A stretch of DNA of 64,000 nucleotides from Raja brachyura (taxonomy: Eukaryota). Of the stretch, positions 19,001-22,081 are shown piece after piece. Each line of letters opens with the position of its first letter. Position 1 is the stretch's first letter. The position numbers were made by a program, and so were the translations under genes. The stretch lies in assembly GCA_963514005.1 (NCBI GenBank), contig OY740807.1, positions 1,550,001 to 1,614,000 of the forward strand. Direction: 5' to 3'. The notes beneath the pieces are model-generated. The model saw only the letters and a program-made list of their open reading frames with translations, did no database searches and was not told the origin of the DNA.

Positions 19001-19726
19001 AGCCCGAGCGCACGCTGGATTGAAATCCACACGCACCAGACAATGGTCCGAGCACGGCACCAGCCGCATTGAGGCCGCTGAGACACGGGAAACAAACGCT
19101 CGGGAAATATAAAACCGATCAATGCGGGAACCACCGCCCTCAGACCTCCGCGAAAAAGCAGTGGAATCAGGGTGAAGGTCCCTCCAAACATCAACCAACT
19201 CAAAAGAGTCAATCAAGCCTCTCAGCTTCTTCGCTACAGCAGGCGCACACTGAGAACCAGAACGGTCCCGCACCTCAAGTGTGCAATTAAAGTCCCCACC
19301 AAGGAAGACACACTCTCCCCTATCAATAGTGCCCAACAGAGCATTCACCTCCCGAAGTAGGCCGGCCTGCATCGTGCCGGAGCTAGGGGCATACACGTTA
19401 ATGAAATGCAACGGCATGCCATCCAGGCTCACGGCCAGATGGAGCAAACGTCCTGGCACCACTTCCTGCACCTTTAAAATGCTTGGCAGAAAATTTGGGG
19501 CCAACAGAAAAGCCACCCCACTCGAATTTGAGCTGAGATGGCTCATATAAACCCTCCCTTCCCACTCCAGATGCCAGGTAGGTTCATCACTAGCAACGGT
19601 ATGTGTCTCTTGCAGATAACAAACTGCAAATCTCCCCTCCCTTAGGGCCGATAAGAGCTGAAATCTTCGAAAACTCGCTCTACTCCCATTTAAATTTAAT
19701 GTAGCTACTGTGAATGTGTAGGCACA
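16019..19726 (-). CDS. Tx1 ORF2: APE endonuclease, reverse transcriptase and C-terminal zinc finger (copy 1, intact)
   Basis: Motifs GGDFN, SRIDRF, SDH, KSPGLDG, WRPVSLL, DQEKAFD, QGCPMS, YADD and CIFCGEEETVFH. The frame stays open 60 codons upstream of the first ATG (19546) and includes TLNLNG and LQETH. Confidence 0.95.
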   Translation of the reverse strand, partial: CAYTFTVATLNLNGSRASFRRFQLLSALREGRFAVCYLQETHTVASDEPTWHLEWEGRVYMSHLSSNSSGVAFLLAPNFLPSILKVQEVVPGRLLHLAVSLDGMPLHFINVYAPSSGTMQAGLLREVNALLGTIDRGECVFLGGDFNCTLEVRDRSGSQCAPAVAKKLRGLIDSFELVDVWRDLHPDSTAFSRRSEGGGSRIDRFYISRAFVSRVSAASMRLVPCSDHCLVRVDFNPACARAGSAYWHFNNRLLEDRCFRESFTRFWVKWRERQRCFSSLRQWWDVGKAHIRLFCKEYTWGSTGRRDSAVEKLEREIQDAESRLGQFGEDSGEWGEFQRKKEVLRSLLLERSRGAYVRSRVQMLHELDRASPFFFSLEKGRGARKQLVELLADDGSSVTDPERINALVRSFYGSLFSAEGFSVEAQQDLWEGLPTVDRGEADLLDGPLSLEELTRALHQLRRGKSPGLDGLTVEFVRAFWDVLGGDYMLVLGESLATGVMPLSWRRTVVVLLPKKGELRLLKNWRPVSLLCTEYKIFARAMANRLGSVLHQVIHPDQSYTVPGRSIQDNIHLVRDLIHLVQGTGESAAFLSLDQEKAFDRVEHEYLFGTLQAFGFGPHFVARVRLLYAAAECLVKVNGAVLSPFHFGRGVRQGCPMSGQLYSVCVEPFLCLLRRRLTGLALPGPRVEVILSAYADDVLLMFTDPGDLRRMRDCQEIFSAASSARINWSKCSGLLVGQWRVDSLPEEMALYAWSTTHLLYLGVYLSPTEDVWPANWQELETKVVARLGRWSGLLGVLSFRGRVLVINQLVASMLWYRLATLVPPSIFVTAIQKKLVDFFWGNRKHWISAAVLSLPLEEGGQSLVCVRTQVAALRLRTLRRYMYVENPPRWHALATYFFRQGRCLRGVSRLPVAGVSRPALRGLPVFYRDVLRVRNLVVFSQSVVPRGEGDVVAAGVAGPHPVMVVVEERREPRVVQIELTPAPSDLLIGPRLRDISRPPAPHNLSCLSEMTSMPFCDARRRALYRMLLHILNHRAFVSRPDSPWRTVLPSEGGGGPQWGSFYKGVVPLYIGDLGWRVLHGAVVCNKLLSRFTGSSAACIFCGEEETVFHVYMECVRLLPLYQYLKGLFLKFWLHFSPTMLVFGHKAGSGESRVWGGDLPVGLLLGLAKMAIRGSRQRAVDGQARVGCLPLFRAYVRARVSLEREHAVFTGTLEAFRQRWSPRGVEAIINECTVVLQ

Positions 19727-22081
19727 TTAGATTGAGACCCTCACACTCCCTGTAGTCACAGGAGCTCCTTTGCTGAGGACCTTCAAAAAACCCCGAAACT
19801 GCCCCAAATCCGAGTCAGAAAGACCACTATCCTTGTTACTAAGGATAGCCTCGAGACTCGCCTGCACATCTAGACAGTCCCCCCACCGCCTTTCAGCAGC
19901 AAACCATAATGTTTTGGAAGTGCGGCTCGTTTTTAGGAACTCTCGCACCTCAACAATAAACTTCGCCTCAGACACGGCCTTGGAGTCTGGGCTCACAGCC
20001 AACCCGCTCGCACATGAATCAACAACCTCAGAAAGACCAGAACTCTCTGATAAATCACTCTCTGTGCCACACCCACTGGCCGCATCGCTGTCCTCCTCCA
20101 CAGCCATGACACGACCCCCCGGATCAATGCTGGGGGTGGGTCCCAACACCCCTGCCTGAGACTCGCAGCCCTCTGAATGGCTGGGCTCCTGCACGCTACC
20201 ATCACCCTCCTCTTCTGGGCCTGGGGAAGCAACAACAAGAGGCATCCCCAGGGCCTGTGGAACACTGGTACCCTCGGAGTCTGAAAGAGGATCACGACCC
20301 ATAACAGCCCTGACCTCCACATCATCCAGAGTGCCCTCTCCACAGGCATCACCCAGAGAATCACCACCTGCTATTAACCTCACCCCAGACAGCTCATCCG
20401 GTGAGGCATCCCGCCCCCCAGCACCTCCACTGGCACTGATATGGAGCACAGACTTGAACGACAACACCCCCGAAACTCCCCCCTCAGCCTGACTCTGCCC
20501 ATCCCCCGTCACAGAGGGCACACTACCAGAAGAGCCAACCACGTCACCTAACGTGCTAGCACCCTCAGTAGGCCTGTGAAACGAGGGGACCTCATCCGAC
20601 CCAGAGGGTACACACCCAAGGGAGCTAACCACAGCACCCGCCGAGATAACTCCCTCAGAGGGCCCCTGAGATGAAGGGACAGACTCCCGCCCAGTGGACA
20701 CAACTCCACCGGAATCAACTTCAGCTCCCAGTCCTGTGACACCCGCTGTAGATCCATGAAGAGAAGGCCCAACCACCGACCCAGAAGACACCGGGTCAAG
20801 ACCACTTTCAGCCACCTCAGTGGTGGAAAGCCCGGAGAAAGACATCCCCTTCGCTCTGGACCCACGCCCTTCCTCATCTTCACCAGGCAGATGCCTCCTT
20901 TTAGTCCCACTCGTATGCGGAGGTGCGGTAACCTCCATAAGGGAAGGGTCATCCGCCTCCACATTACCCCCAACCACTTTGCCACCCACACGTTTAGGCT
21001 TCTTTACCCCATTCCGAGCCACCGCAACTCCCCCCTGGGCCCCAGCAGGTGCAGTCTGCACCACACTGGAGCTAAACTCACCCGATTGCACTTTCTTCGC
21101 TCGGGCGGCCCTATCCCTCTCCTTCTTCTTATTGTGCTTCCCCTGCTTCTCCCAAAACCCCCCCTCAACACTCCCCTCCTCCTGCGCCCCACCTCCATCC
21201 ACCGCCACAGGCGCAAGACGTGGGGGACGTGGGGGGCTTGGGCTCTCACTGCCCAGGGTCCCCAAAGCGGAACCTCTGGACCCAGAAGGCTTAGCACTGC
21301 CGCCCCGGGTCACCAAGGCAGAACTGGCAACCTCAGCCGGGTCAGCAGTACCACCCCGCGCCGCTGAGGTTTGACAAGCCACCCCAGATGGGCCAGCAGT
21401 GCTTTCCTGGGCCACTGCACTAGAACCTCTAGCAGTGCCCCCGCGAAAAAGACACTCCCTACGGAGATGTCCAAATTCGCCGCACGCATGACACCGTGCC
21501 TTGCCCCAACTCCAACGCACGGTTCTGGGTACACCCTTATGCACCACCTCAAAACTCCCCTCGGCACCATCCCCCTCACCCACCTTCATGAACACCCTCC
21601 TCTTGAAACTGAAGACCCCTTTTTCCTCCGGGTCCCCCCCGGGATGCAAGAGACGAAAACATTTAGACCGCACCTCCCCGAACTTGGACAGGTGTGGAAT
21701 AAGCACTGCATCCGAAAAATAAGTGGGGCAGCTCCGCAGGAGAACCGGTCTCACCCTGGATACCCACGGATCCACCTGTACGTGGACCCCCCCCACTGAG
21801 ATCCCCTCCTCCAACGCTCGGGCCACACACTCCCGGGTCTTAAGTATCATCTCCACCTTTCCCCTTTCGAGCTCAGAAGAGACAATAACCCCCCTCCCAA
21901 GAAGTTCATTCATGGCCTTCGTAATTACCCCCCTCGACATCAAAGGCCCAGTTTGAACCGAAATACCAAAACTGTCCCCATCCAAGTCAACATGAGGCTC
22001 AAGCTCAGATGGCCTCGCACCCGCCACTGATGCCATCGCTGCGTAGGTCCGGACCTTCGGCCGCGCCCCTTCCATCGCCAT
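19727..22081 (-). CDS. Tx1 ORF1 (Gag-like nucleic-acid-binding protein with CCHC knuckle), copy 1
   Basis: Open frame of about 784 codons from ATG 22081 (track start 22123 is non-ATG). Zinc knuckle CHACGEFGHLRREC, followed by a long Gly/Ser/Glu-rich tail. Confidence 0.9.
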   Translation of the reverse strand: MAMEGARPKVRTYAAMASVAGARPSELEPHVDLDGDSFGISVQTGPLMSRGVITKAMNELLGRGVIVSSELERGKVEMILKTRECVARALEEGISVGGVHVQVDPWVSRVRPVLLRSCPTYFSDAVLIPHLSKFGEVRSKCFRLLHPGGDPEEKGVFSFKRRVFMKVGEGDGAEGSFEVVHKGVPRTVRWSWGKARCHACGEFGHLRRECLFRGGTARGSSAVAQESTAGPSGVACQTSAARGGTADPAEVASSALVTRGGSAKPSGSRGSALGTLGSESPSPPRPPRLAPVAVDGGGAQEEGSVEGGFWEKQGKHNKKKERDRAARAKKVQSGEFSSSVVQTAPAGAQGGVAVARNGVKKPKRVGGKVVGGNVEADDPSLMEVTAPPHTSGTKRRHLPGEDEEGRGSRAKGMSFSGLSTTEVAESGLDPVSSGSVVGPSLHGSTAGVTGLGAEVDSGGVVSTGRESVPSSQGPSEGVISAGAVVSSLGCVPSGSDEVPSFHRPTEGASTLGDVVGSSGSVPSVTGDGQSQAEGGVSGVLSFKSVLHISASGGAGGRDASPDELSGVRLIAGGDSLGDACGEGTLDDVEVRAVMGRDPLSDSEGTSVPQALGMPLVVASPGPEEEGDGSVQEPSHSEGCESQAGVLGPTPSIDPGGRVMAVEEDSDAASGCGTESDLSESSGLSEVVDSCASGLAVSPDSKAVSEAKFIVEVREFLKTSRTSKTLWFAAERRWGDCLDVQASLEAILSNKDSGLSDSDLGQFRGFLKVLSKGAPVTTGSVRVSI

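Follow-up and report, generated by a model that had tools for sequence, protein, structure and literature searches.

The translation of the second open reading frame (ORF2) of the mammalian long interspersed nuclear element (LINE) LINE-1 was reportedly treated by Alisch et al. in 2006, and SART1 is said, after Kojima et al. in 2005, to couple its two frames through an overlapping stop and start, UAAUG. To our knowledge, other LINEs (R1Bm, TRAS1 and R2) are without an ORF AUG. How LINE ORF2 is translated is called an open question in passages of PMC3894237 and PMC11485995. LINE-1, which belongs to a related clade and likewise has a two-ORF RNA, makes ORF2 by an unconventional, AUG-independent reinitiation according to passages of PMC11485995 and PMC5972666. 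Here we analyse a 64,000-nt window of Raja brachyura (GCA_963514005.1, contig OY740807.1, positions 1,550,001 to 1,614,000), which carries three head-to-tail copies (A, B and C) of a Tx1-lineage LINE on the minus strand, and report that ORF2 of this young family has no conventional start codon.

In copy A, the ORF1 TAA (19729-19727, in window coordinates) is followed by TGT GCC TAC ACA TTC ACA GTA GCT ACA TTA AAT, which lies in the same frame as ORF1 and stays open for 1,235 codons to 16019. The earliest in-frame ATG is codon 61 (19546), past the catalytic N11 (in TLNLNG) and E40 (in LQETH). No in-frame GTG, TTG or ACG occurs in ORF2 ahead of codon 61, and the nearest near-cognate codons are AGG at codon 29 and CTG at codon 38. 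The AUG at 19727 overlaps the stop as UAAUG in the -1 frame, where it opens the 15-codon peptide MCLHIHSSYIKFKWE* that ends at 19680, an identical situation in 3/3 copies. Copies B (26436) and C (33741) share the junction in a gap-free, 601-column alignment, with TGT GTC as codons 1-2 in place of the TGT GCC of copy A. A reading of the locus from its letters alone (the sequence-only reading) had described the in-frame, start-less ORF2 of all three copies, the first ATG 60 codons downstream after TLNxNG and LQETH, and the -1-frame AUG with its 15-codon peptide, and all of this is borne out. The absence of a conventional start codon is real as observed in this family.

Passages of PMC3894237, PMC5972666, PMC10275272 and PMC2699510 give SART1 a UAAUG at the ORF1 stop with no intergenic region, as in 3/3 copies here; in the same passages the AUG of SART1 opens ORF2, whereas here it lies one base out of frame, bar one contig of run X1 discussed below. 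LINE-1 keeps an ORF2 AUG and a 63-nt spacer in the passages of PMC5972666, whereas in the present family ORF2 abuts ORF1 without a spacer or an in-frame AUG at the junction, and the AUG that overlaps the stop is out of frame. The UAAUG overlap by itself is weak evidence, because the chance of an ATG overlapping a TAA here is about 1 in 10 (TG frequency 0.096).

Conserved residues bound the place at which ribosomes can enter ORF2. F5, V7, A8, T9, L10 and N11 each belong to the residues seen most often at the corresponding position in a profile of 147 homologs, and because F5-N11 match this family profile, ribosomes must on that comparison have entered the ORF2 frame by about codon 5. The profile alignment pairs N11 with L1 N14 and E40 (in QETH) with L1 E43; the double substitution E43S+D145N serves as an endonuclease-dead L1 mutant in passages of PMC10830420. 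Initiation at Met61, or entry by a +1 shift at the AUUAAAUUUAAAU run, is therefore highly improbable. Met61 is the first AUG, and gene callers begin there (P0078, P0081, P0082 and P0055), but such a start drops N11 and E40, both of which match the profile. The A/T run is plain coding for T-L-N-L-N, and a frameshift within it would lose F5-L10 and probably N11, again residues that match the profile; we excluded it.

ORF2 matches PF03372 (7e-15), PF00078 (1.5e-36) and, below the cut-off, PF13966 (7e-4), and ORF1 contains the CCHC knuckle CHACGEFGHLRREC, for which the zf-CCHC match (E 0.031) falls short of the cut-off. On a 32-row tree of the reverse transcriptase (RT), the closest partner of the element is a Hemitrygon fragment (100/96), and the two are joined by Acipenser, Xenopus Tx1 and turtles in a 6-row clade (100/100) apart from the teleost rows. 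This placement by itself points to a cartilaginous fish as the likely host. By these comparisons the family is a member of the Tx1 clade, in the lineage of Xenopus laevis Tx1L (ORF2, YTX2_XENLA, P0002), with which it shares 64% identity over the RT region and the same layout of apurinic/apyrimidinic endonuclease (APE), RT and zinc finger.

Close relatives suggest what was lost. A pattern for the first endonuclease motif fits 147 of 236 collected proteins (its Asn is present in 147/147 by construction of the pattern). A Met stands no more than 13 residues ahead of this Asn in 135/147 homologs and exactly 9 ahead in 90, counts in which some first Mets are possibly GTG or TTG calls and the rows are not independent. 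Tx1L ORF2 has its Met start 8 residues ahead of the motif Asn, and the family here is without such a Met. Because Met is present in Xenopus Tx1, sturgeon, turtles and P0085 (68% identity), the loss of the AUG is, on protein comparison, derived in this family, and a one-base displacement of an ancestral UAAUG would be the simplest history.

Gene models that start downstream (P0055, P0077, P0079, P0080 and Gopherus P0083) were considered as a sign of further Met-less relatives and dropped; such calls are unreliable because turtle models P0092, P0095 and P0096 have downstream starts too, though P0086, P0101 and P0233 show the upstream Met. Three ORF2 calls starting at MSHL on an 18,092-bp ENA contig were set aside as not independent, since the contig may be the same locus. 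A metagenome scan gave 56 loci, none above 33% identity and most of them exonuclease III, and a viral scan gave 1 locus (24% identity); neither contained a close junction. In distant L1/Tx1-like elements (L001-L003), ORF1 ends in TAATAA in frame with an ORF2 that has its own Met nine codons on.

Three near-identical neighbours could conceivably share a single lesion, and we therefore tested for selection. Across the first 1,114 ORF2 codons of copies A, B and C, 24 are variable and 12 of these silent, giving an omega of 0.33-0.47 (one-sided P 0.006-0.048 over transition/transversion weights of 1-8), with pairwise P values of 0.027 (A-B) and 0.008 (A-C). ORF1 gave an omega of 0.72 (A-B, P 0.13). 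Variants in other runs agree in direction, with 7/11 silent in ORF2 vs 7/29 in the ORF1 tail among 40 of the 175 rows of substitutions.

The family is widespread: of 24 listed runs, 17 contain at least half of its sequence words, and these 17 carry 11 organism labels. When runs were aligned to 19300-20300 (25 of 900 pieces), one piece of run X2 spanned the whole interval without a gap (22 differences in 1,001), two gap-free contigs of X18 crossed the junction (7 differences in 258 and 28 in 208), and one of X9 did so with 23 differences in 150 at a depth of 2.2, hence error-prone. Two of the gap-free contigs from other organisms are about 85% alike to the element. Because contigs from other organisms cross the junction without gaps, the register predates this array. 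In the comparison across related families proposed earlier, the register recurs in other organisms' contigs, and Met is kept in Xenopus, turtle, sturgeon and P0085. The AUG loss is probably functional and not decay. The sequence-only reading had concluded as much from the recurrence in three copies; its conclusion is supported here by the excess of silent changes and the register in other organisms, whereas three neighbours that are 98-99% identical would not have sufficed.

The need for a non-standard entry into ORF2, also raised earlier, is supported; of the routes then listed, non-AUG reinitiation is now the most likely, read-through is without a signal and the +1 shift at the A/T run is excluded. 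We tentatively favour a model of termination-reinitiation in which one of the four codons that follow the stop, none of them AUG, serves as the start of ORF2. An ancestor would have used an in-frame UAAUG, and a one-base slip would have displaced its AUG; a 40S subunit retained after ORF1 termination would then restart without an AUG, as in L1. The family would have survived given that non-AUG restart is possible and that very little ORF2 protein is required. More speculatively, a hairpin around the stop might help to hold the ribosome, and the out-of-frame AUG might be a relic that damps ORF2 output. Precedents are the AUG-independent ORF2 translation of L1 (passages of PMC11485995 and PMC5972666) and the non-AUG restart codons reported for viral termination-reinitiation in passages of PMC2699510.

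Several points weigh against this model, which was reached by exclusion of alternatives and by analogy. None of ORF2 codons 1-4 (TGT, GCC/GTC, TAC, ACA) is near-cognate. The selection test is based on 24 variable codons, and the B-C pair taken by itself does not reach significance (omega 0.44, P 0.11). In the contigs that are about 85% alike, the alignment register was compared and not the letters at the stop, so that an in-frame ATG made by substitution is possible there. One X1 contig (depth 2,368 of 78,480, 3% of summed depth) lacks base 19723, which brings the AUG of UAAUG into frame with ORF2. A UGGGA upstream of the stop is the motif of calicivirus-type reinitiation at a termination upstream ribosomal binding site (TURBS); no such upstream motif was found here, the sole TGGGA within 150 nt of the stop on either side being at +41. 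A well-placed out-of-frame AUG should capture most restarting ribosomes. In Cryphonectria hypovirus 1 (CHV1), replacing the AUG of UAAUG lowered expression by 92-93% and stopped replication, according to passages of PMC2699510.

A single stop, an exact frame and no spacer in 3/3 copies would also be expected of low-rate UAA read-through, which would explain the register without any start codon and yield a 2,020-aa ORF1-ORF2 fusion, enough at about one ORF2 molecule per RNA. We consider this route unlikely. Known leaky stop contexts include UGA-CUAG and UAG-CARYYA, and UAA-U (UAA-UGU) fits neither. Folding of the RNA 3' of the stop, a check suggested earlier, showed the next 120 nt to be no more stable than shuffled sequence (z -0.41), with no evident read-through stimulator. 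SART1, by contrast, is described in the passages on it as requiring downstream structure. A natural fusion was not found among 3,833 candidates of 1,110-3,534 aa (a word-limited search that gave no match at all), and among the best 150 of 1,268 matches no alignment bridged substantial parts of ORF1 and ORF2. Whale-shark gene models that join ORF1 to ORF2 (P0087 and P0093) look like predicted-intron artefacts and were not counted as fusions.

RNA folding around the stop itself gave a predicted hairpin that holds the stop codon in its loop (z -1.86 in copy A and -2.71 in B and C, in a window picked after the fact). Its energy alone means little, as 22/165 windows along the element have z < -2. 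Among 17 of 96 loose ends, those of two diverged relatives, contigs in X1 and X18 with unlike ORF1 tails, both lie at 19748, where the helix begins on its 5' side, and this shared end suggests constraint on the RNA around the stop. That the hairpin is a programmed recoding element, acting by read-through to the 2,020-aa fusion or by an AUG restart with a two-base slip on the Cys codon, is possible but on the unlikely side. If true, ORF2 would be entered by a route for which we found no description in any LINE, and a single family would harbour natural alleles of both kinds, the AUG being in frame in some and out of frame in others. Rfam gave no match. Two strong predicted folds lie within ORF2, at 19589-19510 and 19449-19370 on the minus strand (+140 and +280 from the stop), with z of about -3.9 at +140, -4.2 to -5.2 at +280 and -3.6 to -5.2 overall in all three copies; they depend on window placement, and 6/165 element windows fall below -3.

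Restart at the AUG of UAAUG followed by a shift into ORF2 within two to four codons would account for the AUG being kept. In one version, a -2 slip, Cys-tRNA would leave UGC/UGU and re-pair with the UGU that lies two bases upstream; codon 2 of the -1 frame indeed specifies Cys in either allele, as UGC in copy A and UGU in copies B and C, with UGU at -2. We regard this route as doubtful, as one variable site is no test and an initiator tRNA in the P site is unable to re-pair; no known shift site or stimulator occurs at this restart site.

Two features that the sequence-only reading had not included are a minor in-frame UAAUG variant and a splice-like acceptor. The variant is the X1 contig introduced above, whose depth of 2,368 far exceeds the 39-74 for most listed X1 pieces and whose allele reads M-S-Y-T-F-T-V-A-T-L-N. 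A second X1 contig (depth 1,483 of 22,498) has one extra base at 19768. Both uncompensated high-depth X1 indels listed fall within 45 nt of the stop; if carried by the same molecule, the 19768 insertion and the 19723 deletion would merge the two frames into one. Each could be an artefact of alignment. The deletion, if real, would be a multi-copy allele with SART1-like coupling and could be the true driver.

On that premise, the AUG-less copies would be passengers mobilised in trans by a rarer in-frame-UAAUG subfamily. The deletion-allele Met would sit 10 residues ahead of the Asn, as in 8/147 homologs, and the depth of the contig also speaks for this explanation. We nevertheless hold the passenger explanation to be rather unlikely. 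About 97% of the summed depth there is without the deletion, which is not among the entries listed for X2, X9 and X18 and could be an artefact near a contig end. Passengers are not expected to keep ORF2 under selection, and L1 proteins favour their own RNA in passages of PMC11485995. Because the AUG-less copies are under selection and diverged relatives share the AUG-less register, the deletion is more likely the derived allele.

The splice-like acceptor raises the possibility that an ORF1 donor is joined to CAG or TAG at 19708/19705, which would remove the stop and connect ORF1 in frame to V-A-T-L-N. A CTAAT branch-like motif lies 19-22 nt ahead of the two same-phase acceptors, and a phase-matched donor-like site at 21081 scores 8 of 9, but pyrimidines before the AG number just 9/15. 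None of the 2 listed joints, nor of 17 of the 96 loose ends, falls at the acceptors, and two X18 contigs cross unspliced (that X18 is RNA is a guess; the listed runs that carry the family include none labelled RNA). Under cis preference, moreover, copies that had lost ORF1 by splicing would be favoured, and none of the three here is spliced; splicing is very unlikely as the route. A-to-I editing of the stop was rejected by reasoning, as two edits would be required within the predicted loop. Non-AUG reinitiation accordingly stays our tentative choice among these routes.

The copies are 97.7-99.1% identical, and each 3' end consists of AATAAA, poly(A) and (GA)n (3/3 copies). Both frames are intact in copies A and B (2/3), and copy C is damaged by ORF1 frameshifts and an insertion inside ORF2. 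The inserted stretch (29832-30398) is a fragment of another repeat, presumably the 3' end of a CR1-type LINE, with a 38-bp tandem duplication at 30323-30398. Tx1L targets the Tx1D transposon, and Kibi, a teleost member of the Tx1 clade, is (TC)n-specific, according to passages of PMC4494074. The copies here sit at (GA)n, and all 3 poly(A) tails adjoin (GA)n/(TC)n as for Kibi, though within one array. The element groups with Xenopus Tx1 apart from the teleost tree rows, none of which is labelled Kibi, so that the comparison is indirect. The target looks Kibi-like and the protein is of the Tx1L lineage. Feature coordinates are collected in Table 1.

The ORF1 tail (about 19730-20120 and its copy B counterpart) is far more divergent between A and B/C than ORF2 is, with 35 variable columns in one 500-column bin vs 1-7 per ORF2 bin, which suggests mosaic copies or rapid ORF1 change. 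An inverted duplication (window 1-5302 vs 45881-40738 and 10617-14536 vs 40740-37061) flanks the Tx1 array and an N gap; its arms are mostly about 97.7% identical, and it could be a palindromic duplication or an assembly feature. A DIRS-like element, judged by eye, occupies 5776-10494 on the minus strand (gag-like, RT/RNase H and tyrosine recombinase). It sits in one arm only of the duplication, and a stop codon interrupts its RT/RNase H frame at about 7922-7924.

Table 1. Window coordinates of the Tx1-lineage copies and of features at the ORF1-ORF2 junction.
Feature	Position	Strand	Basis
ORF1 of copy A: TAA-terminated, 784 aa counted from first ATG, with a single CCHC knuckle	19727..22081	-	ORF reading; zf-CCHC E 0.031, below Pfam cut-off
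UAAUG: ORF1 stop and overlapping AUG of the -1 frame	19725..19729	-	sequence reading
Copy A ORF2, 1,235 codons, in frame with ORF1, no Met until codon 61; APE endonuclease, RT, zinc finger	16019..19726	-	ORF reading and Pfam
Out-of-frame 15-codon peptide from the UAAUG AUG	19680..19727	-	
ORF2 codons 5-13 (FTVATLNLN), first endonuclease motif, includes the A/T run	19688..19714	-	family profile; aligns to L1 residues 8-16 including N14
Met61, first in-frame ATG of ORF2	19544..19546	-	
Predicted hairpin, 7-bp helix of 19748-19742 with 19718-19712, stop codon in loop	19712..19748	-	folding prediction
Stretch resembling a splice acceptor: CTAAT followed by acceptors CAG (19708) and TAG (19705), pyrimidine tract weak	19705..19730	-	sequence motif
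Copy A 3' end, poly(A) tail and (GA)n	15911..15942	-	
Copy B/copy A joint, poly(A)-(GA)n	22611..22644	-	
Copy B, intact ORF1 and ORF2 with the shared junction (TAA 26436-26434)	22726..28788	-	
Copy C/copy B joint, poly(A)-(GA)16	29320..29386	-	
Copy C with the shared junction (TAA 33741-33739), frameshifts in ORF1, a break in ORF2 at about 29832-30394 and a 5' end that meets an N gap	29387..36604	-	

We found no paper on Tx1 ORF2 initiation in a literature coverage without most subscription papers and Repbase, which makes this weak evidence of novelty. AUG-independence has been demonstrated with engineered L1 mutants, and the present family looks like a natural, amplified vertebrate case in a sister lineage. 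It offers a minimal junction with no spacer, and relatives that keep the Met, perhaps along with an in-frame allele, serve as built-in controls. ATG-based annotation truncates such endonucleases and would score active copies as dead.

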